The notes below the pieces were generated by a model. The model searched no databases, was not told the DNA's origin, and worked only from the letters and a program-made list of their open reading frames with translations. A program made the translations under genes and the position numbers. A stretch of DNA of 64,000 nt, from the NCBI RefSeq assembly GCF_963921235.1, contig NC_086097.1, forward strand, positions 169,262,001 through 169,326,000. Reading direction: 5' to 3'. The DNA comes from Mobula hypostoma. Its lineage: Eukaryota. Shown piece by piece: positions 10,541-59,087 of this stretch (position 1 is the stretch's first letter; the number at the start of each line of letters is the position of its first letter).

Positions 10541-12433
10541 ATCAGAATCAAAATCAGGTTTATTATCACTGGCACGTGATGTGAAATTTGTTAACTTAGC
10601 AGCAGCAGTTCAATGCAATACATAATCTAGCAGAGAAAAATATAATAAATAAAATAAAAATAATAATAATAAATAAACAAGTAAATCAATTACAGCATAC
10701 GTATATTGAATAGATTTTTAAGAAACATGCATAAACAGAACTACTGTATTTTTAAAAAAAGTGAAGTAGTGTCCAAAGATTCAATGTCCATTTAGGAATC
10801 GGATGGCAGAGGGGAAGAAGCTGTTCCTGAATCACTGAGTGTGTGCCTTCAGGCTTCTGTATCTCCTACCTGATGGAAACAGTGAGAAAAAGGCATGCCC
10901 TGGGTACCCATAATGGATGTTGCCTTTCTGAGACACCGCTCCCTGAAGATGTCCTGGGTACTTTGTAGGCTAGTACCCAAGATGGAGCTGACTAGATTTA
11001 CAACCTTCTGCAGCTTCTTTCAGTCCTGTGCAATAGCCCCTCCATACGAGACAGTGATGCAGCCTGTCAGAATGCTCTCCACAGTACAACTGTAAAAGTT
11101 TTTGAGTATATTGCGAGTTGCAGGAGGAGAAGATGGCAACGCGCCTGTGTGTGCGCAGCCCTCCGGTGAAAAATGATATTGTATCTGTTAAATAGGGGCC
11201 GTGGACAATTCTGATTTGATGGAGAATGGACATGAAAGCACAGAGGAACATCTGGAGAAATTTCTGAAATGCCCGTTCGCTGCTGTTGTTACTGTGTGGT
11301 CAGAAATCTTTTGGAGGGTAAGCTTCAAAATCCCTGGCCTTGCCTGCTTTTGGCGACCGAGAAAGAGGTCGAATCATTCGGACAGAGATGGCGCTCAGTA
11401 CTCGGTGTTGGAGAGCTGATCAGAGCTTGAAGTTTTCGGATGACTCAGAGTCGGATTGTGGTCGGCATGGCAGGGAGAGTTTTTCTTCCTTCTCCCGTCT
11501 GCGTGAGATGTGGGACATTTGAGGGACTTTGAACTTTTACTGTGCTCGTGGACTTCTTCATCAAGTTATGGTATTGTTGCACTGTTGTAACTATATGTTA
11601 TAATTATGTGGTTTTGTTAGTTTTTTCAGTCTTGGTCTGTCCTGTGTTTTGTGATATCACACCGAAGGAAATAATGTATCATTTCTTAATGCATGCATTA
11701 CTAAATGACAATAAAAGAGGACTACATGTCTTCATATTTGTTGACATGCCAAATCTCTTCAAACTCCTATTAAAGTATAGTTGCTGTCTTGCCTTCTTTA
11801 TAACTACATCGATATGTTGGGACCAGGTTAGATCCTCAGAGATCTTGATACCCAGGAACTTGAAACTGCTCACTCTCTCCACTTCTGATCCCTCTATGAG
11901 GATTGGCATGTGCTCCTCCATCCTACCCTTCCTGAAGACCACAATCAGCTCTTTCGTCTTACTGACGTTGAGTGCCAGATTGTTGCTGCCACACCACTCC
12001 ACTAGTTGGCATATCTCACTCCTGTACACCCTCTCGTCACCACCTGAGATTCTACCAACAATGGTTGATTCATCAGCAAATTTATAGATGGTATTTGAGC
12101 TATGACTAGCCACACAGTCATGTATATACAGAGAGTAGAGCAGTGGGCTAAGTACACACCTCTGAGGTGCGCCAGTGTTGATCATCAGCGAGGAGGATAT
12201 GTTATCACCAGTCCGCACAGATTGTGGTCTTCCAGTTAGGAAGTCGAGGATCCAATTGCAGAGGGAGGTACAGAGGTCCAGTTCTGCAACTTCCCAATCA
12301 GGATTGTGGAAATGATGGTATTAAATGCTGAGCTATAGTCGATGAACAGCATCCTGACGTAGTTCTGTTGTCCAGGTGGTCTAAAGCCATGTGGAGAGCC
12401 ATTGAGGTTGCATCTGCCGTTGACCTATTGTGG
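10541..12433 (-). mobile_element. Rex1/Babar-type LINE, 5'-truncated, inserted in CR1 ORF2
   Basis: ORF 11679..12218(-) [17 protein letters not shown]...IYKFADES...KARQQLYF; tail seen as atcagaatcaaaatcaggtttattatcac at 10541-10569; CR1 reading resumes at ~12434. Confidence 0.88.
11113..11733 (+). mobile_element. Non-autonomous SINE-like retroposon (no tRNA head), copy 1
   Basis: Interrupts the Rex element with candidate ATATT TSD (11108-11112, 11734-11738); starts GGAGGAGAAGATGGC, ends ATGACAATAAAAGAGGACTACATGTCTTC; homologous along its length to 12822..13482(-). Confidence 0.75.
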
Positions 12434-12821
12434 AGATAGGTCAAAGTCAGCATGGTTTCCTTCAGGGAAAATCCTGCCAGACGAACCTGTTGGAATTCTT
12501 TGAGGAGATTACAGGTAGGATAGATAAAGGGGATGCAGTGGATGTTGTATATTTGGACTTTCAGAAGGCCTTCGACAAGGTGCCACATGTGAGGCTGCTT
12601 ACCAAGTTAAGAGCCCGTGGTATTACATGAAAGTCACTAACATGGTTAGAGCATTGGCTGATTGGCAGGAGGCAGCGAGTGGGAATAAAAGGATCATTTT
12701 CTGGTTGATTGCCAGTGACTAGTGGTGTTCCACAGGGGTCAATGTTAGGACCACTTTCTTTATGCTGTATATAAATTATTTAGGTGAAGGAATATATGGC
12801 TTTATTGCCAGACTTGCAGAT

Positions 12822-13482
12822 TAGATTAGATTAGATTATGAGGACACGCAGTCCTCTTTTATTGTCATTTAGTAATGCATGCATTAAGAAATGATACAAT
12901 GTCTTTCCAGAACGATATCACAGAAACACATGACAAACCGAGACTGAAAAACTGACAAAAACCACATAATTATAACATATAGTTCCAACAGTGCAAAGCA
13001 ATACCGTAATTTGATAAGAACAGACCATGGCACGGTAAAGTCTCAAAGTCTCTCGAAAGTCCCATCATCTCACGCAGACGATGAACCTCCAGCGCCACAA
13101 ACTTGCCGGTGCAGCATCCTGGAAGCATCCGACCACAGTCCGACTCCAAGTCCATCCAAAAACTCCGAGCCTCCAACCAGCTCTCCGACACCGATGCACC
13201 AAGCACCATCTCTGCCGAGCACTTCGACCCTGGCCCCGGCAGCAGGCAATAGGCAAGGCCGAGGATTTGGGGCCTTCCCTCCGTAGATTCTGAATTGCAC
13301 AGTAGTAGCGGCAGCGAAGCAGCCATTTCAGAAGTTTCTCCAGATGTTCCTCCGTGCTTCTCACAGCTGTCTCCATCAAATCAGGATTGTGCACGGCATC
13401 CTACTTCACAGATACGATATCATTCGGAACGGCCACACGTGCTGTGTCGTGCCGCCATCTTCTCCTCCCTCCTTGCTACGAG
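12822..13482 (-). mobile_element. Non-autonomous SINE-like retroposon (no tRNA head), copy 2
   Basis: Interrupts CR1 at the FADD-encoding site (ttgcagat | gatacaag); (TCTAA)n tail on minus strand at 12820-12837; same 5' GGAGGAGAAGATGGCG and 3' end as copy 1. Confidence 0.8.
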
Positions 13483-20254: not shown

Positions 20255-22230
20255 ACCATTGACCTTGTACTCTGCCTTCAAGTTCAATCTTCCAAAGTGT
20301 ATCATATGACACTTCTTCATCTAACTCTGCATTGTATCTATATCCTGCTGTAACTTACAGCATCCTTCTAATCTAGACTATCCACAACACCACCTTCATG
20401 TCATTTGCAAACTTACTAACCCACCCCTCCAATTCCTGACACAAATCACACTTAACAATCACAAAGGATGAAGGTCCCAGAACAGATCCCTGCAGAACAT
20501 CACCAGTCACCAGCTCCAGGCAGAACATGCTCCATAGAACACGAGAAAGACTGCAGATGCTGGAAATCCAAAACAACACAGACAAAATGCTGGAGGAATT
20601 CTGAAGTTCAGGCAGTATCTATGGAAATGAATAAACAGTTGCTGGTTTGGACCAAGACCTTTCTTCAGGGCAAAACAAAGGGGGAAGATGCCAGAATAAA
20701 AAGGTGGTGGGAAGGAAAGGAGGATAGCTGAAGGTGATAGGTGAAGCCAGTTGGATAGGAAAGATAAAGTGCTAGAGAGAAAGAAATCTGATAGAGGAGT
20801 GTAGACCATAGTAAAAAGGGAAGGAGGAGAGGCATCAAGGGGAGGTGATAGGCAGGTGAGAAGAGGCAAGAGGTCAGAGTGGGGAATGGAAGAAGTGGGA
20901 AGGGGGAGGGTCATTTTTTTTGTTACCAGAAAGAGAAATCGATATTCATGCCATCAGGTTGGAGGCTGCCCAGAAGGAATAATAAGGTGTCGTTCCTCCA
21001 CCCTGAGGGTGGTCTTATCTGGGCACAAGAGTAAGTCATGGACCAGCATGTCAGAATGGGAATGGAAATCAGAATTGAAATATTTGGCCACTGGGAAGTT
21101 CCATTTTTGGCATATGGAGCAGATATGCTGGACAAAGTGGTCCCCCAATTTATGATCGGCCTCACCAATGTGGAGGAGGCCACATCAGGAGCACCGGACA
21201 CAGTAAACAACACCAGAAGTGTTGCCTCACATAGAAGGACTGCTTGGGGCCCTGAATGCAGGTGAAGGAATTGGTGAATAGGTAGGTGTAACATCTAGGC
21301 TGCTTGCAGGGATAAGTGCCAGGAAGGATATTGGTGGGGAGGGACGAATGGACAAGGGAATCACGGAGGGATCAATCCCTGTGGAAAGTGAAGAGGGTGG
21401 GAGGTAAAGATATGTTTGGTGATATGATCCCTTTGGAGATTTTGGAAATTGTGGTGGATGATGTGTTGATGTGGAGGCTCATGGGCTGGTAGGTAAGGCA
21501 AAGAGGGACTCTGTCACTGTCAAGGGAGCGGGAAGATGGGGTGAGTGCAGGTGTTTAGGAAATGGAGGAAATGTGGGTGAGGGCAGCATCAATGGTCGAG
21601 AAGGGGGACCATTCTTTGAAGAAGGAGGACATCTCTAATGTCCTGGAATGGAAAACCGCATCCGGGGAACAGATGTGACAGAGACTTTCTCCAGGGGACA
21701 AGGAGGGAAGAAGTATAGTCAAGATAACTGTGGAAATCTGTAGGTTTATAAAAGATGTTAATCAATAGTTTGTCCCCAGAGATGGAGACAGAGAGATTGA
21801 GAAATGGGAAGGAGGTGTCATAAATAGACCAAGTTAAGGGCAGGGTGGAAGTTAGAGGCAAAGTTGATGAAATTGATGAGCTCAGCATGGATGCATGAAG
21901 CAGCACCAATGTCGTCATCAATGTAGCAGAGGAAGAGTTGGGGAATATTACCGGGGAAGGCTTGGAACATGGACTATTCCACAAAGCCAGCAAAGAGGCT
22001 GGCATAGCTGGGGCCCATGAGGGTGCCCATGGCTACCCCTAGAGTCTGGAGAAAGTAGGAGGAGCTGAAGGAACTCCATCTACCACCACCCTCTGTGGGC
22101 AAGCCAATTCGGAATCCACACAAGTCCCCATAGATCCCAATCCTTATGACTTTCTGAATAAGCCTACAATAGGGAACCTTATCATAAAATCTGTGTACAC
22201 CACATCCATCACTTGACTTTCATCAACTTG
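20255..22230 (-). mobile_element. CR1 RT fragment, split by a Penelope-like insertion
   Basis: VTGDVLQGSVLGP...WVSKFAND in ORF 20373..20585(-); continues at 22074 (ctccatctaccaccaccctctg). Confidence 0.7.
20536..22073 (-). mobile_element. Penelope-like element (RT and GIY-YIG endonuclease fragments plus pLTR), 5'-truncated
   Basis: Minus-strand QTLGVAMGT (RT), DKLLINIFYKPTDFHSYLDYTSS, GDHFVQHICSI...FPVAKYFNS, LGSLQPDGMNIDFS; candidate TSD CTCCAT at 20530-20535 and 22074-22079. Confidence 0.88.
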
Positions 22231-29920: not shown

Positions 29921-29979
29921 CGCAATGAATAATTGGAATGCTTGATATAAAATGGTTCTCTGGGATTTACAAACTTCAG
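29921..29979 (-). CDS. CEP192: CEP192 coding exon (59 nt)
   Basis: tttgcag|LKFVNPREPFYIKHSNYSL(R)|gtgagt; phase 0 in, phase 2 out. Confidence 0.95.
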
Positions 29980-37373: not shown

Positions 37374-37468
37374 AGATGAAAGGTCTCAACCCGAAACGTC
37401 AACTGTTTATTCCTTTCCATAGATGCTGCCTGGCCTGCTGAGTTCCTCCAGCATTGTGTGTGTGTTGC
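37374..37468 (+). mobile_element. Miniature Penelope-like 3' terminus (95 bp) beginning within the hammerhead motif
   Basis: TSD CTTGAGGGAC (37364-37373) / CTTGAGGAAC (37469-37478); ends gtgtgtgttgc like the larger copy at 39744. Confidence 0.75.
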
Positions 37469-38506
37469 CTTGAGGAACTGAGTTGTAGGTGGTGATCTTA
37501 CAGAGGTGTATAAAATCACGAGGGACATAGATAGGGTGAATGCACCAGCCTTCTTGTCAGAGTTGGGGTATCAAGAAATAGAGGGGCATAGAGTTAAGGT
37601 AAGAGGGGAAAGATTTAAAAGGAACTTGTGGGGCAACTATATATTTTGCCTTAAACAGAAAGGGTAGTATCTATGTGGAATTGACTGCCACAGGAAATGG
37701 TTGAGGCAGGTACAATAACAATTTCAAAAAGACAGTTGGACTGTTGCATAGATTGTAAAGGTTTAGAGATTAGGTGCCAAATGTTAGCAAAAGGGACCAG
37801 CCTGGAGGAAACACCGTAGACAAGTTGGACCAAAAAACCCAAGTTGAGCCAAAAGTCATACATGTATGACTCTGACCATCAACAGCATGGCATGGTAGGT
37901 AAAAAAAAAGATATACTGTAAATACATTCAGGATACTGGGACTAAACAAAAGCAGAGAGAATAAGTACAAAGTACTTGTAGTGAAACTTAATAAAACACT
38001 CATTTGGCCAGAACTAGCAGAGTTTTGGTTTTAAGTGTTGACTGCTACAACAGAGAAAGAAGGTTTTAAGGAGGTTTGCAGGAGATTTACCAGAATGATT
38101 CCAAGGATGAGGGATTTGAGTTGAAAACTCAATTGGGAACTGGGCAGATATGCACTATTCTTGCAAACAGTGGTCATTGTGGCTTTCTTCAATATTAACC
38201 TGTGATTCATGAAACCTAAATATTCATAATTAGGAGATGAGACTATGGTAAAGAGAAACGAATAATTAATTCATTTCAGGCAATGACAAAATCAAACAAA
38301 CAGCAATGTTCACAACAAACAGGTGTTTAACATAGTGTCAACTACACTTAGGTGGGTTCTGCTATTAAAGATACCAAGTAAGATACAAACAAAAATTGTA
38401 GCAAAGAATGCAAAGCTTGTCATACTTCACCGGAAAAACAATAGATTGAACGAGACCAATATTGTACTCTAATTTAATGACTTGTAGCAAATATTTTCTT
38501 ACTGAC

Positions 38507-38619
38507 CCAGTTTTGGTTAATCTTTCCAACAAAGACTTCCTTGTTTTCACTGCCGTTTCTGTTCTTACTAGTTGTGGGGCTGAACTGGTTTCCTTGGAGC
38601 TCATTTTGGGTTTTGTTCC
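38507..38619 (-). CDS. CEP192: CEP192 coding exon (113 nt, linker between ASH domains)
   Basis: ttttccag|GTKPKMSSKETSSAPQLVRTETAVKTRKSLLERLTKT(G)|gtcagt; low sequence conservation but phase 0 in / phase 2 out exactly bridges the flanking exons. Confidence 0.8.
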
Positions 38620-38641
38620 CTGGAAAATAAATGCGTTTATT

Positions 38642-39741
38642 GCAAATACAAGGAATTCTGCAGATGCTGGAAATTCAAGCAACACACATCAAAGTTGCTG
38701 GTGAACGCAGCAGGCCAGGCAGCATCTATAGGAAGAGGCACAGTTGACGTTTTGGGCCGAGACCCTTCGTCAGGACTAACTGAAGGAAGAGCTAGTAAGA
38801 GATTTGAAAGTGGGAGGGGGAGGGGGGGATCCAAAATGATAGGAGAAGACAGGAGGGGGAGGGATGGAGCCAAGAGCTGGACAGGTGATTGGCAAAAAGG
38901 ATATGAGAGGATCACGGGACAGGAGGCCCAGGGAGAAGGAAAAGGTGTGGGGGGGAGAAACCCAGAGGATGGGCAAGGGGTATAGTCAGAGGGAGAAAAA
39001 GGGGGGGGGGGGGGAGAGAGAAAGAAAGAGAGAGAGAGACACACACACAGAAAATGTGTGTATATAAATAACTAACGGATGGGGTACGAGGGGGAGGTGG
39101 GGCATTAGCGGAAGTTAGAGAAGTCAATGTTCATTAGCGAGATCGTTTTGCTGAACACCTACGCTGTCCGCCAGAGAAAGCAGGATCTCCCAGTGGCCAC
39201 ACATTTTAATTCCACATCCCATTCTGATATGTCTATCCATGGCTCCCCTACTGTAAAGATGAAGCCACACTCAGGTTGGAGGAATAACACCTTATATTCT
39301 GTCTGGGTAGCCTCCAACCTGATGGCATGAACATTGATTTCTCAAACTTCCGCTAATGCCCCACCTTCCCCTTGTACCCCATCCGTTATTTATTTATATA
39401 CACACATTCTTTCTCTCTCTCCTTTTTCTCCCTCTGACTATACCCCTTGCCCATCTTCTGGGTTCCCCCCCCTCCCCCTTTTCCTTCTCCCTGGGCCTCC
39501 TGTCCCATGATCCTCTCATATCCCTTTTGCCAATCACCTGTCCAGCTCTTGGTTCCATCCCTCCCCCTCCTGTCTTCTCCTATCATTTTGGATCTCCCCC
39601 CTCCCCCTCCCACTTTCAAATCTCTTACTAGCTCTTCCTTCAGTTAGTCCTGACGAAGGGTCTCGGCCCGAAACGTCGACTGTACCTCTTCCTAGAGATG
39701 CTGCCTGGTCTGCTGCGTTCACCAGCAACTTTGATGTGTGT
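38642..39741 (+). mobile_element. Penelope-like element, 5'-truncated, with inverted pseudo-LTR
   Basis: Inverted arms 38679..39134 and 39327..39744; centre encodes GIY-YIG C-terminus (DRFAEHL...QDLPVATHFNS...LGSLQPDGMNIDFSNFR-stop 39354-39356); TSD TGCGTTTATT at 38632-38641 and 39742-39751. Confidence 0.92.
39645..39682 (+). ncRNA. Minimal type I hammerhead ribozyme motif in the Penelope pLTR
   Basis: Stem I TAGTC/GACTG; core CTGACGA (39650-39656) plus extra A; stem II GGGT-CTCG-GCCC; GAAA (39670-39673); loopless palindromic stem III ACGT; GTC cleavage triplet ending 39677. Confidence 0.8.
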
Positions 39742-39874
39742 TGCGTTTATTACACATTTCTTTGCTATTAAATGGGGAAAAATGTATCCAAAATTATATC
39801 AATATAAAAACTTGTATAAACAAAAATAATTCCTGCATCCAAACAGCTTTTCCAGGCAATTAACATTGTCTACA

Positions 39875-43416: not shown

Positions 43417-45037
43417 ACAATAGCAGCAGGAAGGGAAATAGGCATCCAATGCAAAGTACCTGTGTGGCCATTCCCCTCAATAATAAATATACCTTTTTGG
43501 ATACTGTGGAGGGCGACGATCTTCCAGGGGTGGGGGGAACCACACTAACCAGGTCTCTGGCGCTGTGGCACAGAAGGGAAAGGGGCGAAGAGGACTGCAG
43601 AAGTGAGAGAGGAATAGACACGAGATCATGAGATTCTGTGGACTCGATAGAGAGACCCGGATGGTATGTTGCCTCCCAAGTGCCAGGGTCAGGGTCATTT
43701 TGGATTGGCTTCATGACATTCTAAAGGGGGAGGGTGTGTAGCCAGAAGTCTCGATATATATTGGCGCCAATGACATAGGCAGGTAAGGTCCTCAAGAAAG
43801 AATTTAGTGAGACAGGTAGAAAGCTGAGAAGCAGGATATCCAGTGCCTGTGCCACATGCCAGAGAGGGTAAGAATAGGATGATCTGGCAGATTCATGTGT
43901 GGCTGAGAAGCTGGTGTGGGGTTTAAGACTTCTGGATCATTGAGATCTCTTCTGGGGATGGTACAACTTGTACAAAAAGGGTGGGTTACACCTGAACCCA
44001 AGGGAGACCAATATCCTTACAGGCAAATTTGTGAAAACTATTGTGGAGGGTTTCAACTAATTTGGCAATGGGATAGGAACCAGACTAATAGAGGAAGAGA
44101 TAGGGCTGTTAGTTTACAAGTAGAGATAATGTGTCGTGAGACTGGCAGAAAGCAGTCAGATGGTAAGGCAATATTGCAGTCGTGGAATGAGTTTCAGTGT
44201 AGAAGGGAGACAAAATCGAAAAAGGTATTGGATACAGGATTAAAGGTTTTTTGTTTGAATGCACACAGTATACGGAATAAAGATGATGATCTTGTAGCGC
44301 AGTTTGAGATTGGCAGATATGACATTGTGGGCATCACTGAATCATGGCTGAAAGCTGGGAGCTTAACCTCCAAGGATACACGTTGTATCAAAGGGACAGG
44401 CGAGTTAGCAGAGGGGATGTGTGGTTCTGTTGGTAAAAAAAAATCCCTAGAAAGAGGTGACATGAGATTGGAAGTTGTAGAATCCTTATGGGTAGAGTTA
44501 AGAAGTGAAACAATAAAAATACCCTGATAGGAGTTATATAAAGGCCTCTGACCAGTAGCCAGAATTACAGCGGGAGATAGAAAAGGTTTGTCAAAAGGGC
44601 AATGTTACGATAGGCATGGGGATTTCAATATGCTGGTAGACTGGAAAATCAGGTTGGTACTGAAACCCAAGAGAGAGAATTTGTAGAATGCCTACAAGAT
44701 AGCTTTCCAGAGCAGCTTGTAGTTGAGTCCTTTAGGGGATCAACTATTCTGGATTAGGTGTTGTGTAATGAACCAGATTTGATTAGGGAGCTTAAGGTGA
44801 CGGAACCCTTAGGAGCCAGTGATCATATGATAGAATGCACCCTGTAGTTTGAGAGGAGTCAGATGTATCGGTACTACAATGGATAAACCGAATTACAGAG
44901 GTATGAGAGAGGAGCTGGCCAAGGTTGACTAGAAGGGGATACTAGCCTGGATGACAGCAGAGCGGCCATGGCTGTAGTTTTTGGGAGCAATTTGGAAGAC
45001 GCAGGATAGATACATCCCACAGAGTAAGTGTTCTAAA

Positions 45038-45180
45038 CACAAACAAGAGAAAATCTGGAGATGCTGGAAATCTAAGCAACACACACAAGATGAAGAGTCT
45101 CAGCTCGAAACATCAACTGTACACTATTCTACAGATGGTGCCTTGCCTGCTGCGTTCCTCCAGCATTGTAGGTGTATTGC
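45038..45180. mobile_element. Miniature Penelope-derived insertion (143 bp) with short inverted 5' arm
   Basis: 13-bp TSD TAAGTGTTCTAAA (45025-45037) / TAAGTATTCTAAA (45181-45193); degenerate hammerhead gatgaagagtctcagctcgaaacatc. Confidence 0.8.
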
Positions 45181-46535
45181 TAAGTATTCTAAAGGCAGGA
45201 TGATGCAATCATGGCTGATAAGGGAAGTCAAAGCCAACATAAAAACAAAAGAAAGGGCATATAATAGAGCAAAAATTACTTGGAAGTTAGAGGATTGGGA
45301 AAAGTAAAAACCAACGGAAGCCAACTAAAAAAGCCATGGGGGGGAAACGGGGAGAGATGAAATATAAAGAGTTAAAGAGAGGTGACAGAAGACATTGGAT
45401 CGATGAAACTTGGCACAGGAGAGGTGGTAATGGGGGACAAAGAAATACAGATGAACTGAATAAGTATTTTGCATCAGTATTCACTGTGAAAGACACTAGT
45501 AGTATGCTGGCGTGCCAGGGTGTAGAAATCAGTGTAGTTACTATTACTAGGGAGAAGGTGCTTTGGAAGCTGAATGGTCTGAGGGTAGATAAGTCACCTG
45601 AACCTGATGGAGTACACCCCAAGGTTCTGAAGGGATTGTGCAGGCATTAGTAATGATCTTTCAAGAACCACTTGATCCTAGAATGGCTCTGGAAGAATAG
45701 AAAATTGCAGATGCCACTCTACTCGTCATGGAGGGAGGAAGTCAGAAGAAAGGAAAATATATGCCAGTCAGCCTGACCTCAGTGGTTGGAAAGATGTTGC
45801 AGTCAATTAAGGATGTATTTTCAGGGTATTTGGAGACACATGATAAAATAGGCCAAAGTCAGCATGGTTTCCTTAAGGGAAAATGTTGCCCGACAAATCT
45901 GTTGGAATTCTTTGAGGAAATAACAAGCAGGACAGACAAAGGAGAATCATCGATGTTGTATACTTGGATTTTCAGAAGGCCTTTGACACGATGGCACATG
46001 TTAGGCTGCTTAACAAGAGCCCATAGTATTATAGAAAAGATACTAGCACAGATAAGAGTATTGGTTGACTGGCAGGAGGCAAAAGGTGAGAGTAAAGGGA
46101 ACCTTTTTTAATTGGCTGCCTCTGACTAAAGGTCTTCCAGAGGGTCAGTGTTAGGACTGCTTTTTTTTAACGTTACATGTCAATGATTTGGATGATGGAA
46201 TTGATGGATTTGTGGCCATGTTCGCAGACAATAGGAAGATAGGTGGAGGGGTAAGAGATGTCGAAGCAAGTAGCTGAAGAAGTGAGCGGAAGAATTTGGG
46301 TGGAAAAAGTTGTTTCTTTTTAAAAACTGCTTGGGGAGAAGGGTCTGCACTGCGCAGGCGCGTGATGTAGCGCGCCAAGGTTTAAAAAGCAGACCACCAT
46401 ATACAGCGGCCATCATCGGAGTGGACTGAGTCAGAGTGGGGCGGCTTTGACTCAAACAGGCTTAGGCGAGAACAGGCAGACGCCAGGGTAGGTTCTGGTA
46501 AGTTTTTTTTGTTCAGATTGTCCTGTGTAGAGAGA

Positions 46536-47472: not shown

Positions 47473-50400
47473 TTGCAGGGGGATGGGAACCACAGTACCA
47501 GAGCTGACAGTGTGGCTGGGGTGAAAATAAATGATGTTAAAAGTTCAAGCAAATCCACTAATAGAAAGGTTGTGAGTGGTGGTAAAAATCTTCTGAGGTG
47601 TATATATTTCAATGCTAGGAGTATTGTGGGGAAGGCGGATGAGTTGAGGGTGTGGATTGACACGTGGAATTATGACGTTGTAGCAATTAGTGAAACTTGG
47701 CTACAGGAGGGGCAGGACTAGCAGCTTAATATTCCAGGGTTCCGATGTTTCAGATGTGATCGAGGCAGAGGAATGAAAGGTGGGGGAGTGGCATTGCTTG
47801 TTAGGGAAAATATTACAGTAGTGCTCAGGCAGGACAGATTAGAGGGCTTGTCTACTGAGTCCTTGTGGGTGGAGCTGAGAAACAGGAAAGGTATGGCCAC
47901 ATTAGTGGAATTGTATTACAGACCACCCAATAGTCAAAGAGAATCAGAAGTGCAAATCTGCAGAGAGATAGCAGGCAACTGCAGGAAACATAAAGTTGTG
48001 GTGGTAGGGGATTTTAATTTTCCATATATTGATTGGGTCTCCCATACTGTTAGAGGTCTAGATGGTTTAGAGTTTGTAAAATGTGTTCAGGAAAGTTTTC
48101 TAAATCAATATATAGAGGGACCAACTAGAGGGGATGCAATATTGGATCTCCTGATAGGAAATGAATTAGGACAACTGACAGAAGTCTGTGTAGGGGAGCA
48201 CTTTGGTTCCAGTGATCATAACACCATTAGTTTCAACTTGATCATGGACAAGGATAGATCTGGTCCTAGGGTTGAGGTTCTTAACTGGAAGAAGGCCAAA
48301 TTTGAAGAAATGAGAAAGGATCTAAAAAGCGTGGAATGGGACAGGTTGTTCTCTGGCATGGATGTGATCGGTAGGTGGGAAGCCTTCAAAGCAGAAATTT
48401 TGAGAGTGCAGAATTTCTATGTCCCTGTCAGGATTAAAGGCAAGGTGAATAGGAATAAGGAACCTTGGTTCTCAAGGGATATTGCAACTCTGATAAAGAA
48501 GAAGAGGGAGTTGTATGACGTGTATAGGAAGCAGGGAGTAAATAAGGTGCTTGAGGAGTATAAGAAGTGCAAAAAAATACTTAAGAAAGAAATCAGGAGG
48601 GCTAAAAGACATGAGGTTGCCTTGGCAGTCAAAGTGAAGGATAATCCAAAGAGCTTTTACAGGTATATTAAGAGAAAAAGGATTGTAAAGGATAAAGTTG
48701 GTCCTCTTGAAGATCAGAGTGGTCGGCTATGTGCGGAACCAAAGGAAATGGGGGAGATCTTAAATAGGTTTTTTGCCTCTGTGTTTACTCAGGAAACTGG
48801 CATGAAGTCTATGGAATTAAGGGAAACAAGTAGTGAGATCATGGAAACTGGAGGAGGTGCTTGCTGTCTTGAGGAAAATTAAAGTGGATAAATCCCCGGG
48901 ACCTGACAGGGTGTTCCCTTGGACCTTGAAGGAGACTAGTGTTGAAATTGCAGGGGCCCTGGCTGAAATATTTAAAATGTCGCTGTCTACAGGTGAGGTG
49001 CTGGAGGATTGGACAGTGGCTCATGTTGTTCCGTTGTTTAAAAAAGGATCGAAAAGTAATCCGGGAATAGGCCAGTAAGTTTAACGTCGGTAGTAGGTAA
49101 GTTATTGGAGGGAGTACTAAGAGACAGAATCTACAAGCATTTGGATAGACTGGGACTTATTAGGGAGAGTCAACATGGCTTTGTGCGTGGGAGGTCATGT
49201 TTGACCAATCTACTGGAGTTTTTCGAGGAGGTTACCAGGAAAGTGGATGAAGGGAAGGCAGTGGATATTGTCTACATGGACTTCAGTAAGGCCTTTGACA
49301 AGGTCCCGCATGGGAGGTTAGTTAGGAAAATTCAGTCGCTAGGTATACATGGAGAGGTGGTAAATTGGATTAGACATTGGCTCGATGGAAGAAGCCAGAG
49401 AGTGGTGGTAGAGAATTGCTTCTCTGAGTGGAGGCCTGTGACTAGTGGTGTGCCACAGGGATCAGTGCTGGGTCCATTGTTATTTGTCATCTATATCAAT
49501 GATCTGGATGATAATGTGGTAAATTGGATCAGCAAGTTTGCTGATGATACAAAGATTGGAGGTGTAGTAGACAGTGAGGAAGGTTTTCAGAGCCTGCAGA
49601 GGGACTTGGACCAGCTGGAAAAATGGGCTGAAAAATGGCAGATGGAGTTTAATACTGACAAGTGTGAGGTATGCACGTTGGAAGGACAAACCAACGTAGA
49701 ACATACAGGGTTAATGGTAAGGCACCGAGGAGTGCAGTGGAACAGAGGGATCTGGGAATACAGATACAAAATTCCCTAAAAGTGTCGTCACAGGTAGATA
49801 GGGTTGTAAAGAGAGCTTTTGGTACATTGGCCTTTATTAATCAAAGTATTGAGTATAAGAGCTGGAATGTTATGATGAGGTTGTATAAGGCATTGGTGAG
49901 GCCGAATCTGGAGTATTGTGTTCAGTTTTGGTCACCAAATTACAGGAAGGATATAAATAAGGTTGAAAGAGTGCAGAGAAGGTTTACAAGGATGTTGCCA
50001 GCACTTGAGAAACTCAGTTACAGAGAAAGGTTGAATAGGTTGGGACTTTATTCCCTGGAGCGTAGAAGAATGAGGGGAGATTTGATAGAGGTATATAAAA
50101 TCATAGATAGAGTGAATGCAAGCAGGCTTTTTCCACTGAGGCAAAGGGAGAAAAAAACCAGAGGACATGGGTTTAGGGTGAGGGGCGAGAAGTTTAAAGG
50201 GAACATTGGGGGGGGGGCTTCTTCACACAGAGAGTGGTGGGAGTATGGAATGAGCTGCCAGACGAGGTGGTAAATGCGGGTTCTTTTTTAACATTTAAGA
50301 ATAAATTGGACAGATACATGGATGGGAGGTGTATGGAGGGATATGGTCCGTGTGCAGGTCAGTGGGACTAGGCAGAAAATGGTTCGGCACAGCCAAGAAG
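47473..50400 (+). pseudogene. CR1 ORF2 (APE endonuclease plus reverse transcriptase), disrupted
   Basis: [42 protein letters not shown]; split across ORFs 47473..47721, 47773..48882, 48833..49078, 49105..49779, 49671..50273. Confidence 0.9.
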
Positions 50401-51464
50401 GGCCAAAAGGCCTGTTTCTGTGCTGTAGTTTCTATGGTTTCTATGTTGAGGAAGAACAGAGGCTGCAGAAGGTCTTGGATAGATTAGGAAAATGGACTAA
50501 GTAGTGGCTAATGGAATAGTGTCGGGAAGTACACGGTCATACACTTTGGTAGATGGAATAAAAGCATAGACTATTTTCTTAATAGGGTGAAAATTCAAAA
50601 ATCCAACATGCAAAGGGACTTGGGAGTCATCGTGCAGGATTCCTTAAAGGTTAATTTACAGGTTGAGTCGGTGGTGAGGAAGACAAATCCATGTTAGCAT
50701 TCATTTCAAGAGGACTGGAATATAAAAGCAAGGATGTAATGCTGAGGGTTTAAGGCACTAGTGAGGTCTCATTTGGAGTACTGCGAGCAGTTTCTTATTT
50801 AAGAAAGGACGTACTGACATTGGAGGGGTTTCAGAAAAGGTTCACGAGAATGATTCTGGGAATGAAAGTCTCATCGTATGAAGAGCGATTGAAGGCTCTG
50901 GGCCTTTACTTACTGGAATTTAAAAGAATGAGGGGTGGGGAGGGCAAGAATCTCACTGAAACCTCTCGAATGGTGCAAGGCATAGATAGGGTGGATGTGG
51001 AGAGGATATTTCCTATATTGCGTGAGTTTAGGACCAAAGTATATTGCCTCATCAGAATAGATGCTTTAGAATGGAGATAAGAAGGAATTTGTTTAGCCAG
51101 AGAGTGGTGAACCATGGAATTCATTGCCACAGGCAGCTGTGGAGGCCAGGTCATTGGGTATTTAAGGCCAGGGTTGATACGTTCTTGATTAGTCAACCTG
51201 TGAAAGGTTACGGGGAGAAGGTTGAGAAGAATGAGGCTGAGGGGGAAATGGATCAGCCATGATGAAATAGTGGAGCAGACTCGATGGGCCAAACAGCCTA
51301 GTTCAGCTCCTCTGTCTTATGGTCAAAAACACTAAATTTCTTGTGCAAGCCCACATCTCTCTTTTTACCTGGGTTAAATTGCATGTCATGCAAAATTATA
51401 CACTCACATACCCAAATGGATTGCACTCTTCATTTCAAAAACAGAAGCCTTCATTTTTGCTTAC

Positions 51465-51584
51465 CACACCATGAAGCTGAAACTGAATCTTGTTCTTTAC
51501 ATGTGGCTCTGCAACCAGACGATATTCCAGATCCCAAAATTGTGCATAATCCCCCTTATCTCGAGGCATAAAAGAGACAGGCAA
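51465..51584 (-). CDS. CEP192: CEP192 coding exon (120 nt)
   Basis: tcttctag|LPVSFMPRDKGDYAQFWDLEYRLVAEPHVKNKIQFQLHGV|gtaagc; GDYAQFWD motif matches recalled CEP192. Confidence 0.95.
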
Positions 51585-52002
51585 CTAGAAGAGATCACAA
51601 AGTAACTTCATTAAGCACAATAATTAATACTACTTCTTTGAGTTTGAGCAATTTCAAAATTTTAGGAATACAATTCAAGTCCAAATGTTTTGAGAATGCA
51701 GCTGATCTCATGCTCTGACCTTCAGGATCAGACTCCTAAAGAGAACCTTGACAGAGGCTTTAAGGAAATCCACAGACGACATTAACCGCAATTCCCTTCA
51801 CTGATGAGAGCAGTGGGTATCTATGCAGAGTTAAGCAAGGCTTTTGACAAGGTCCCAATACAATTTCTGGCCCAATTTGCCAACCATGTCTATCCAAATA
51901 CTTGTATATCTGGTCCCTTAGAATACCTTACAATAATTTCCCTGCTACTGATGTCAGGCTCACGGGCCAAAAGTTTCCTAGTTTATTTTTAGAGCCTTTC
52001 TT

Positions 52003-55000
52003 AAACATAGAAAACTTAGAAAAACTACAGCACAATACAGGCTGTTCGGCCCACAATGCTGTGCCGAACATGTATTTACTTTAGAAATTACCCTGGGGTT
52101 ATCCATAACTCTATTTTTCTAAGCTCCATGTACCTATCCAGGAGTCTCTTAAAAGACCCTATTGTATCTGCCTCCACCACCATCGCCAGCAGCCCATTCC
52201 ATGCACTCACCACTCTGTGTAAAAAAACTTACCCCTGTCATCTCTTCTGTACCTACTTCCAAGCACCTTAAAACTATGCCCTCTTGTGACATCCATTTCA
52301 GCCCTGGGAAAAAGCCTCTGACTATCCACATGATCAGTGCATCTCATCATCCGTCGCTCCAGGGAGAAAAGGCCAAGTTCACTCAACCTATTCTCGTAAG
52401 GCATGCTCCCCAATCGAGGCAACATCCTTGTAAATCTCCTCTGCACCCTTTCTATAGCTTCCAAATTCTTCCTGTAGTGAGGTGACCAGAACTGAGTGGG
52501 GTCTAACCAAGGTCCTATATAGCTGTAACATTACCTCTTGGCTCTTAAACTCAATCCCACAGTTGATGAAGGCCAATGCACCATATGCCTTCTTAACCAG
52601 AGTCAACCTGTGTAGCAGCCTTGAGTGTCCTATGGACTTGGACCCCAAGATCCTTCTGATCCTCCACACTGGCAAGTGTCTTACCATTAATACCATATTC
52701 TGCCATCATATTTGACCTACCAAAATGAACCACCTCACACTTATCTGGGTTGAACTCCATCTGCCACTTCTTAGCCCAGTTTTGCATCCTATCAATGTCC
52801 TGCTGTAACTTCTGACAGCCCTCCACACTATCCACAACACCCCCAACCTTTGTATCATCAGCAGATTTAATAACCCATCCCTCCACTTCCTCATCGAAGT
52901 CATTTATAAAAATCACGATGAGTAGGGGTCCCAGAACAGATCCCGAGGCACACCACACTGGTCACCGACCTCCACGCAGAATATGATCTGTCTACAACCA
53001 CACTTTGCCTTCTGTGTGCAGGTTCTGGATCCACAAAGCAAGATCCCCTTGGATCCCATGCCTCCTTACTTTGTCAATAAGCTCTGCATGGGGTACCTTT
53101 ATCAAATGCCTTGCTGAAATCCATATACACTACATCTACTGCTCTTCCTTCAATGCATTTAGTCACATCCTCAAAAAATTTAATCAGGCTTGTAAGGCAT
53201 GACCTGCCTTTGACAAAGTCATGCTGACTATTCCTAATCATATTACACCTTTCCAAATGTTCATAAATCCTGCCTCTCAGGATCTTCTCCATCAACTTAG
53301 CAACCACTGAAATAAGACTCACTGGTCTATAATTTCCTGGGCTATCTCTACTCCCTTTCTTGAAAAAGAGAACAAAACATGCAACCCTCCAATCCTCTGG
53401 AACCTCTCCCGTCCTCATTGATGATGCAAAGATCATTGCCAGAGGCTCAGCAATCTCCTCCTTCGCTTCCCACAGTAGCCTGGGGTACATCTCGTTCGGT
53501 CCCGGAGCTTTATCTAACTTGATGCTTTCCAAAAGCTCCGGCACATCCTCTTTCTTAATGTCTATATGCTCAAGCTTTTCAATCTGCTAAGTCATCCCAA
53601 CAATCACCAAGATCCTTTTCCGTAGTGAATACTGGAGTAAAGTATTCATTAAGTCCCTCAACTATCTCCTCCAGTTCCATACACACTTTTCCACTGTCAC
53701 ACTTGATTGGTTCTATTCTCTCACGTCTTATCCTCTTGCTCTTCACATACTTGTAGAATGCCTTGGGGTTTTCCTTAATCCTGCCCGCCAAGGCCTTCTC
53801 ATGGCCCCTTCTGGCTTTCCTAATTTCACTGCTAAGCTCTTTCCTGCTAGCTTTATAATCTTCTAGATCTCTATCATTACCTAGTTTTTTTTTAAACCTT
53901 TTGTAAGCTTTTCTTCTTGACGAGATCTTCAACAGCCTTTGTACACCACGGTTCCTGTACCCTACCATCCCTTCCATCTCATTGGAACGTACCTATGTAG
54001 AACGCCACACAAATATCCCCTGAACATTTGCCACATTTCTGCCGTACATATCCCTGAGAATGTGTTTCCAATTTTTGCTTCCAAGTTCCTACCTGATCGC
54101 TTTATATTTCCCCTCACTCCAGTTAAACACTTTCCTAACTTGTCTGTTCCTATCCCTCTCCAATGTTATGGTAAAGGAAATAGAATTGTGATCACTATCG
54201 CCAAAATGCTCTCCCACTGAGAGATCTGACACCTGACCAGGTTCATTTCCCAATACCAGATCAAGTACAGTCTCTCCTCTTGTAGGCTTATCTACATAAT
54301 GTGCCAGGAAACCTTCCTGAACACACCTAACAAACAACACCCCATCTAAACCCCTTGCTCTAGGGAGATGGCAATCAATATTTTGGAAGTTAAAATCTCC
54401 CAACACGACAACCCTGTTATTATTACACCTTTCCAGAATCTGTCTCCCTATCTGTTCCTCGATGTCCCTGTTACTATTGGGTGGTCTATAAAAAACACCC
54501 AATAGAGTTATTGACCCCTTCCTGTTCCTAACTTCCACCCACAGAGACTCAGTAGACAATCCCTCCATGACTTCCTCCTTTTCTACAGCCGTAACACTAT
54601 CTCTGATCAGTAGTGCCACACCCTCACCTCTTTTGCCTCCTTCCCTGTCCCTTCTGAAACATCTAAAGCCTGGCACTCTATGTAACTGTTCCTGCCCCTG
54701 AGCCATCCAAGTCTCTGTAATGGCCACAACATCATAGCTCCAAGTACTGATCCACGCTCTCAGCTCATCTGCTTTGTTTATGATGCTTCTTGCATTAAAA
54801 TAGACACATCTCAAACCATCGGTCTGAGTGTACCCCTTCTCTATCACCTGCCTATCCTCCCTCTCACACTGTCTACAAGCTTTCTCTATTTGTGAGCCAA
54901 CCCGCCCCTTCCTCTGTCTCTTCAGTTCGGTTCCCACCCTCCTGCAATTCCAGCTTAAACTCTCCCTAAGAGCCTTAGCAAATCTCCCTGCCAGGATATT

Positions 55001-58044: not shown

Positions 58045-58140
58045 CTGTATTGTGCTATGCCCCTGAAGTGTTCCAGACACTCTGGAGCATCGGAAGGCAG
58101 TGTAGGTTGCCCTGTATATATCTCCACTGTCATCTACCCA
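58045..58140 (-). CDS. CEP192: CEP192 coding exon (96 nt)
   Basis: ttcaacag|WVDDSGDIYRATYTAFRCSRVSGTLQGHSTIQ|gtaaga; matches recalled VDESGDVFRATYAAFRCS. Confidence 0.95.
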
Positions 58141-59087
58141 CTGTTGAATACAGCAAAAGTTGAAACACAAAAAAATAATAAATACCCTACCAATAGAGGT
58201 ATTAAAACAAGCCACTAATATAGACACAGGAGATTCGCCAAATGCCGAAAACCTTGAGCAACACACAAAGTTCCAAAGGAACCCAGCAAGTCAGGCAGTA
58301 ACTACGGAGGGGAATAAACAATCAATATCTTGGGTCGAGCCCCTTCATCAGGACACTGATATCCGAGAGGGTCAGAGTAGGAAAATACATGTTTTATTAT
58401 GCTATCACATATATTTCTATAGAAAAGAGCAACTATACATATTGGATTCAAGCTTGTTCAATGTCATTTCCTGGACACAAGTGCAAAGGAGACCGAAAGA
58501 ATTGTTACTCCGGATCCAATGCAGCACCAGAAAAACATGAAAGAACACAATGATAATAGTAATAATTTTCTAAAATGGTAATAAAACAAAAGGTTGATAA
58601 TACTCAAGATATGGAACAAATATTAATACAAAGTTGCTGAGCTTTAATATTAATGCTGATTCTCTTCACAGATGCTGCCTGATCCACTGAAATTTACAAC
58701 AATTTGTGCTTTGTTTCATACTTCCAGCATTAAAACTATTTTCTCTTTCTCTTTGAACTTATAAGCATTTAGAAAGGCAGAATAATGATACACTTGAAAA
58801 AAGATTAACATTCAATAGTTTTCAACCAATGTGCTGTTTATCTGTTCAAAGTACAGTACACTTGTTTTCTATTATACTTGCCAATTTGAAAATGATCTGG
58901 TTATTCCTGTTTTCTGTAAAGCAAATTTTTGTTCAAACTAATACATCGTTCACAACTCCCTGCTGACATGCAGTAACCTTTTCTTGTGACATCTCAGCAA
59001 ATGTATTTTTAGAAATTCAAAAACCCTACATCCACTGCATCCCCTTTGCTTCACCTGCCAATTACATCCTTCGGAAATGTTGATATA

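Follow-up and report, generated by a model that had tools for sequence, protein, structure and literature searches.

A decaying Penelope-like fold-back element beside a CEP192 splice acceptor in Mobula hypostoma

One intron of the CEP192 gene of Mobula hypostoma carries an element of about 1.1 kb that ends 22–25 nt upstream of the real splice acceptor. Its sequence features indicate a dead, 5'-truncated Penelope-like retroelement (PLE). We consider it probable that the element is a neutral, decaying fold-back, carried as a tolerated passenger, whose distal arm would be transcribed first, whose duplex would probably be edited and whose neighbouring exon would be constitutive. Two details of the element are new: the hammerhead in CEP192 sense lacks G12, and the stem buries a cryptic acceptor stronger than the native one.

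The host exon and the anatomy of the element

In the window (the whole 64-kb stretch of DNA analysed, to which all coordinates refer), CEP192 is represented by eight minus-strand exons, from 63374 to 28142, which join into a single open frame of 309 codons. The translation is identical to the annotated M. hypostoma CEP192 isoforms (309/309) and differs at three positions from M. birostris CEP192 (306/309), and the frame has Pfam matches to Cep192_D7 and Cep192_D8. Of seven CEP192 exon frames scanned against Pfam, six matched D7 or D8 and one, the linker exon 38619–38507, had no match. This coding exon (38507–38619, minus strand; 113 nt, phase 0 to 2), identified by tblastn, the open frame and the annotated isoforms, encodes the linker between ASH domains 7 and 8. 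It lies outside the conserved SP2D, which comprises ASH4–5; according to PMC11922060, the function of the extra ASH domains is unknown. The preliminary description had called this exon frame-critical, and rightly so: skipping its 113 nt shifts the frame, so that translation stops 33 nt into the following exon, far ahead of two later junctions, and ASH domain 8 is lost. With the stop so placed, NMD would be expected for the exon-skipped transcript. An alternative 117-nt in-frame exon that would use the donor-like site 38502 was rejected, since the following exon requires phase 2 and a length of 113 nt agrees with every homologue. The three residues that differ in M. birostris all fall within the linker exon, and by sequence comparison this exon appears to be the least constrained part of the last 309 residues of CEP192.

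Read outwards from the exon, the native acceptor AG and its short pyrimidine tract (38620–38631, minus strand) are untouched by the insertion. They are followed by the exon-proximal copy of the target site duplication (TSD; 38632–38644, plus), which contains the branch candidate at −18 (38637), and by a one-sided Penelope tail (38642–38678, minus) with two out-of-frame AGs (38667 and 38658) and a TNA motif at −56. By this tail, 34–37 nt according to TSD length, the proximal side extends past the distal arm. The inverted, proximal arm (38679–39134, minus) comprises the pseudo-LTR and the last ORF codons; it has the pre-mRNA sense and is 74% pyrimidine. Within it lies a minimal type I hammerhead (38741–38782, minus) with the same sense as the pre-mRNA; its G12 is replaced by A (38753) and one pair of helix I is broken (38745). 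A cryptic acceptor (38780–38796, minus; AG at 38781–38780, 14/17 pyrimidines) sits at the 5' end of this helix I. The 192-nt spacer, together with the initial 27 nt of the distal arm, holds the broken end of a C-terminal GIY-YIG endonuclease ORF (39135–39353, plus). This arm (39327–39744, plus) is the element's own 3' pseudo-LTR without the tail. The distal arm holds a second minimal type I hammerhead (39641–39682, plus), antisense to CEP192 and with an intact core. Beyond it are the distal TSD copy (39742–39754, plus), whose first 3 nt also match the pseudo-LTR end, and the displaced former branch zone (39747–39769, minus; TNA motifs at 39769, 39768, 39750 and 39747), directly 5' of the stem.

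The near-perfect inverted arms around a 192-nt spacer, as first described, were confirmed by blastn (38679–39134 against 39327–39744, reverse complements, E 1e-164). Global alignment gave 417 paired columns with 19 mismatches (4.6%; 95% alike) and 40 gap columns, nearly all of them in a CT/GT microsatellite. The TSD reported at 38632–38641 also held, the 10-mer being repeated at 39742–39751 and found at no other site in the 64-kb window. The match extends to 12/13 (38632–38644 against 39742–39754), and the true duplication may be 13 nt instead of 10 nt, since the breakpoints in organism D (see below) and the ends of family contigs fall at 38644. The empty site as first reconstructed depends on a TSD of 10 nt; with a 13-nt TSD the ancestral base at −23 is ambiguous, and the motif at −21 may never have existed.

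The Penelope-like identity first proposed is supported by the broken GIY-YIG end, the pseudo-LTR with its minimal hammerhead, the inverted copy and the one-sided tail. Assignment of the spacer to a C-terminal GIY-YIG endonuclease ahead of the pseudo-LTR is indirect: the spacer shares 77% identity over 164 nt (E 1.8e-27) with a longer relative in the window (20933–21096), of which the frame 20957–21184 scored 0.94 in the Atlas with GIY-YIG clusters, where the family is found on 15–31% of the members. A tblastn comparison also pointed to the endonuclease end. Pfam matched none of three frames of the element and none of five frames of the relative, and a word search for homologues with the relative's endonuclease frame yielded none among seven candidates. 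The truncated focal copy has no RT; at 21.6–22.2 kb the relative carries what we take to be RT-like motifs, for which Pfam gave no match. The relative itself is a longer, decayed Penelope-like copy (20538–22200, minus) located downstream of CEP192, with a GIY-YIG end and a terminal repeat. A motif scan placed the hammerhead cores of the focal element at 39650 (plus) and 38773 (minus), and a pseudo-LTR with a minimal hammerhead motif fits the description in PMC4209133. Rfam recognised no hammerhead in the element; its single match at E values up to 5 was a chance H19_3 hit.

According to PMC8557442 and PMC3846280, the standard PLE insertion has an inverted, 5'-truncated copy with a 30–40-bp tail at one end, and PMC3846280 describes inverted pLTRs, a 31-bp tail and TSDs of 8–10 bp. 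A preference of the PLE endonuclease for AT-rich targets is reported in PMC11167929, and PMC4209133 reports minimal hammerheads in PLE terminal repeats, with pairs on opposite strands. Family contigs in the sequencing runs end both with and without the tail, with ends at 38644. Given this standard architecture, the inverted arms are a by-product of the family's mode of insertion; their shape is standard for Penelope-like elements, and the focal copy is one more such insertion. Insertion would have proceeded by endonuclease nicking and reverse transcription at the AT-rich 3' end of the CEP192 intron, copying only the 3' end of the element (the last ~70 endonuclease codons and the pseudo-LTR), and the inverted copy with its tail would have been placed at the other end, as is usual for the family. 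Capture of host DNA between the arms was ruled out, the spacer being the element's own endonuclease end.

Age, decay and abundance of the family

Insertion state was read from assembled contigs of four of 24 sequencing runs; in one of these, X9, intron sequence was covered and the material is possibly DNA. None of the runs was recorded as RNA, and ten were taken to be RNA by guess. Organism B (run X5, records 19 and 20) has both junctions and is a carrier: its left contig (37695–38670) runs through unique flank and 26–29 nt into the left end of the element, and its right contig (39722–40140) starts inside the right end and continues into flank. In organism D (run X18, record 12, 713 nt), 38644 is joined to 39755 with one letter between them, which represents the empty site. 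Both junctions in organism B and the empty site in organism D rule out an assembly artefact. Counted over the eight flank pieces listed for each organism, the flanks differ from those of organism B at 69/4515 positions (1.5%) and from those of organism D at 209/3232 (6.5%). The arms differ from each other at 19/417 positions (95% CI of the 4.6%, 2.9–7.0), or by 3.4% without five low-complexity mismatches, a measure of age that assumes identical arms at insertion. The arm divergence, together with a carrier and an empty-site relative, dates the insertion between the splits from B and from D. Anatomy, the insertion polymorphism between lineages and the divergences were all observed directly: the element is old, is common to organism B, a sister species, and has been tolerated since it inserted. 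Judged from the sequences, the arms appear to have drifted at about the rate of the flanks. Among 14 transitions between the arms, four keep a G-U wobble pair in the pre-mRNA and ten produce an A-C mismatch (p 0.18), and these sequences give no sign of selection maintaining the pairing of the stem.

The repeat end gave 15 blast hits in the window, at about a dozen loci. Summed contig depth in run X5 was ~2 million over the arms against 10–14 on single-copy flank contigs; such sums are no copy number, but the family is nonetheless clearly very large, and in the run contigs the arms of the focal copy are swamped by thousands of other copies. With 11 loci and eight acceptors, an element would be expected by chance to end no more than 25 nt from an acceptor in ~3% of such windows, which is not rare across a scan. 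An exact 34-nt pattern searched for in JGI metagenomes gave no matches.

Several other repeats in the window were recorded. The same CEP192 intron contains a second, miniature Penelope fold-back (45025–45193) with an inverted tail, a short direct repeat end and a 12/13 target duplication, equal in length to the extended TSD of the focal copy. A Penelope repeat-end relic (58228–58359, minus) lies ~90–120 nt before another CEP192 acceptor, at 58140. LINE-like inverted pairs occur at 11172–13424 (76% over 598 nt) and 48989–53412 (66% over 1090 nt), the arms of the latter lying on both sides of the CEP192 exon 51584–51465. An older repeat end in the next intron (37375–37473, plus) lies in inverted orientation to the proximal arm, with 79% identity over 101 nt, and the focal exon is thus flanked by an inverted pair. 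Looping of the exon through this copy was rejected: the duplex would be weaker (−137.5 vs −181.1 kcal/mol) and the copy is transcribed later.

The hairpin, the cryptic acceptor and the native acceptor

In the model, the minus strand of the element forms a single stem (about −896 kcal/mol), with longest perfect runs of 79 and 74 bp, whose end at 38679 is 59 nt before the exon. The long CEP192 pre-mRNA hairpin of the preliminary description is thereby upheld as a prediction, and it probably forms in the pre-mRNA. As an intronic hairpin stays nuclear, its proposed role as a Dicer substrate is the weakest part of the earlier interpretation. The 5' arm contains 144 adenosines, and ADAR editing of the hairpin is plausible by analogy with Xenopus tropicalis, where Penelope elements rank with the most heavily edited repeats (PMC10636886). 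Like other intronic inverted repeats, the hairpin probably undergoes editing.

Among the intron's 347 YAG sites, the cryptic AG of the proximal arm, at 38780, ranks ninth, ahead of the native acceptor. Splicing to it would lengthen the exon by 160 nt and shift the frame, and in the modelled stem it is completely paired. A stronger cryptic acceptor so placed makes it more plausible, on the model, that the stem protects the exon than that it harms it. The site may be the element's own acceptor, by analogy with the D. virilis Penelope intron, which ends at the 5' end of helix I. A donor-like site at 39076 (minus), which differs by one base in the other arm, lies ~297 nt from the strong acceptor at 38780 (minus) inside the inverted arm, and the two may be an intron of the element's own pseudo-LTR.

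At 38753 the sense hammerhead carries A, against G at the corresponding position 39670 of the distal arm, and an intact core with G12 was not found in this copy. Both of its changes, at 38753 and 38745, are of CpG type, and from one copy selection for the loss of G12 is indistinguishable from plain CpG decay. The G12A change slows the hammerhead 500-fold to million-fold (PMC2553840), and single minimal PLE hammerheads show no cleavage in vitro as monomers (PMC4209133); self-cleavage of the CEP192 pre-mRNA by the sense hammerhead is therefore, judging from its sequence, very unlikely. These points also weigh against the idea that the element is a selected regulatory module, in which the ribozyme or small RNAs from the stem control CEP192. 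The intact hammerhead core in the distal arm speaks for such a module, but that copy is antisense to CEP192, both hammerheads are buried in the stem and the element is absent from organism D, and we regard a role of this kind as extremely improbable.

The element lies within branch-point range, as originally claimed. The last 22–25 nt of the intron are unchanged by the insertion, so that the pyrimidine count stays at 11/17; with the element, the AG-free zone increases from 28 to 36 nt and modelled pairing of positions −30 to −1 decreases from 0.75 to 0.55. In the reconstruction with a 10-nt TSD, the TNA branch candidates were at −40, −39, −21 and −18 and are at −56 and −18 with the element, i.e. 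three of the four former candidates were displaced, −18 was kept and −56 was gained. The comparison acceptor at 29979 likewise has only two branch candidates. The focal exon is present in 5/5 M. hypostoma and 7/7 M. birostris CEP192 models and in 10 stingray models, or 22/22 of the stingray and devil-ray models examined; these are automated protein models from a C-terminal search, with 15 of the 19 members listed for one model cluster, and such models rarely show NMD-targeted skipped forms. A spliced contig of 1624 nt (run X11, record 1) covers the next exon, and the focal exon is not among its listed pieces. The earlier proposal that branch-point use and exon inclusion are altered thus goes unsupported: the acceptor end is unchanged and, in the model, less paired, the AG-free zone is larger, the insertion is common to organism B, and all 12 Mobula models keep the exon.

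The geometry of the fold-back nevertheless makes an effect on splicing possible, by analogy with exon 3 of human RABL5. There, an inverted Alu pair 24 nt upstream leads to skipping, which persisted while added spacer was shorter than 68 nt (PMC2533698). By this precedent, the CEP192 hairpin might lower or tune exon inclusion through branch-point crowding or ADAR binding and give carriers a minor frameshifted, NMD-bound isoform; the stem base at 59 nt and the element end at 22–25 nt from the exon, the few and weak branch candidates left and the 144 adenosines agree with it. Since the insertion is shared with organism B and long tolerated, no annotated skipped or extended form occurs in the 12 Mobula models, the modelled acceptor is less paired with the element and the arms do not appear to be conserved for pairing, we think such an effect unlikely.

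A different use of the stem would be as a bridge, the old branch zone still being used and 1066 nt being collapsed by the hairpin, as in yeast introns with distant branch points. The displaced TNA motifs are 3–25 nt from the stem base and include a yUnAy match at 39768, and the collapsed branch-to-AG distance would be 62–84 nt. The tail AGs at 38667 and 38658, however, precede the native AG and both shift the frame, a local branch candidate remains at −18, and the idea is taken by analogy from fungal introns; bridging appears highly improbable.

The reading of the element as a tolerated passenger has to accommodate the displacement of three of the four TNA candidates in the 10-nt reconstruction and a stem within the distance relevant in RABL5. 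Its survival would be explained because the duplication left the last 22–25 nt of the intron intact, the tail adds a harmless pyrimidine-rich stretch, and the arms would pair with each other during transcription, the distal arm being transcribed first. Pairing would leave the native acceptor open but conceal the ribozyme, the cryptic acceptor and the pyrimidine tract of the sense strand. The hairpin would then be edited as other intronic inverted repeats are, the exon would stay essentially constitutive and the element would decay neutrally; folding, editing, masking and constitutive inclusion in vivo are what we infer.

Wider meaning and comparison with known systems

As it stands, the element is one of very many Penelope remnants in the ray genome and matters little. 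A stronger reading, which we think very unlikely, is that the fold-back is load-bearing, CEP192 being spliced correctly only because the distal arm masks the proximal arm. If so, a lone inverted arm would be a splicing poison, i.e. a 456-nt, 74% pyrimidine tract with a ribozyme and, 160 nt upstream of the native acceptor, an acceptor stronger than it. By inserting as inverted pairs, PLEs would then shield themselves and could thereby remain next to splice sites, and mutations or ADAR editing that loosen the stem would adjust the output of CEP192 via the frameshifted isoform. The locus offers a clean natural experiment: there are lineages that carry the element and a relative with the empty site, skipping of the exon shifts the frame, and the geometry is one that affects splicing in a human gene. 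Should masking by the second arm prove necessary, it would explain the tolerance of single-event fold-backs near splice sites, and this could be tested genome-wide in rays. A literature search, with most subscription journals outside its scope, found no paper on the CEP192 locus or on PLE fold-backs that alter splicing.

The element resembles EN+ PLE insertions (PMC8557442, PMC3846280) in i) the GIY-YIG remnant, ii) the pseudo-LTR, iii) the inverted copy producing terminal inverted repeats, iv) the 34–37-nt tail on one arm, and v) the short TSD at an AT-rich site. It differs from known PLE insertions only in host and position, a ray genome and the vicinity of the CEP192 acceptor, although its TSD is possibly 13 nt as against 8–10 nt in the rotifer examples of PMC3846280.

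The hammerheads are like the minimal ones of metazoan PLEs (PMC4209133) in their type I core, unpaired base before helix II, palindromic tiny helix III and two copies on opposite strands, and helix I has an acceptor-like AG at its 5' end, as is described there for the D. virilis Penelope intron. Their spacing is ~880 nt, as against ~100–700 in that source, and the pre-mRNA-sense copy, unlike those PLE hammerheads, lacks G12. The animal retrozyme preprint (10.64898/2026.07.22.740005) treats tandem forms only.

With the RABL5 Alu pair (PMC2533698) the element shares an intronic retroelement inverted repeat within ~60 nt of an acceptor; in both, the proximal arm contains cryptic acceptors and a pyrimidine tract. 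For RABL5, editing and skipping of the exon were demonstrated, whereas the CEP192 hairpin is known from sequence and model. Unlike the Alu pair, the CEP192 element acquired both arms in one insertion event, and skipping of its exon shifts the frame.
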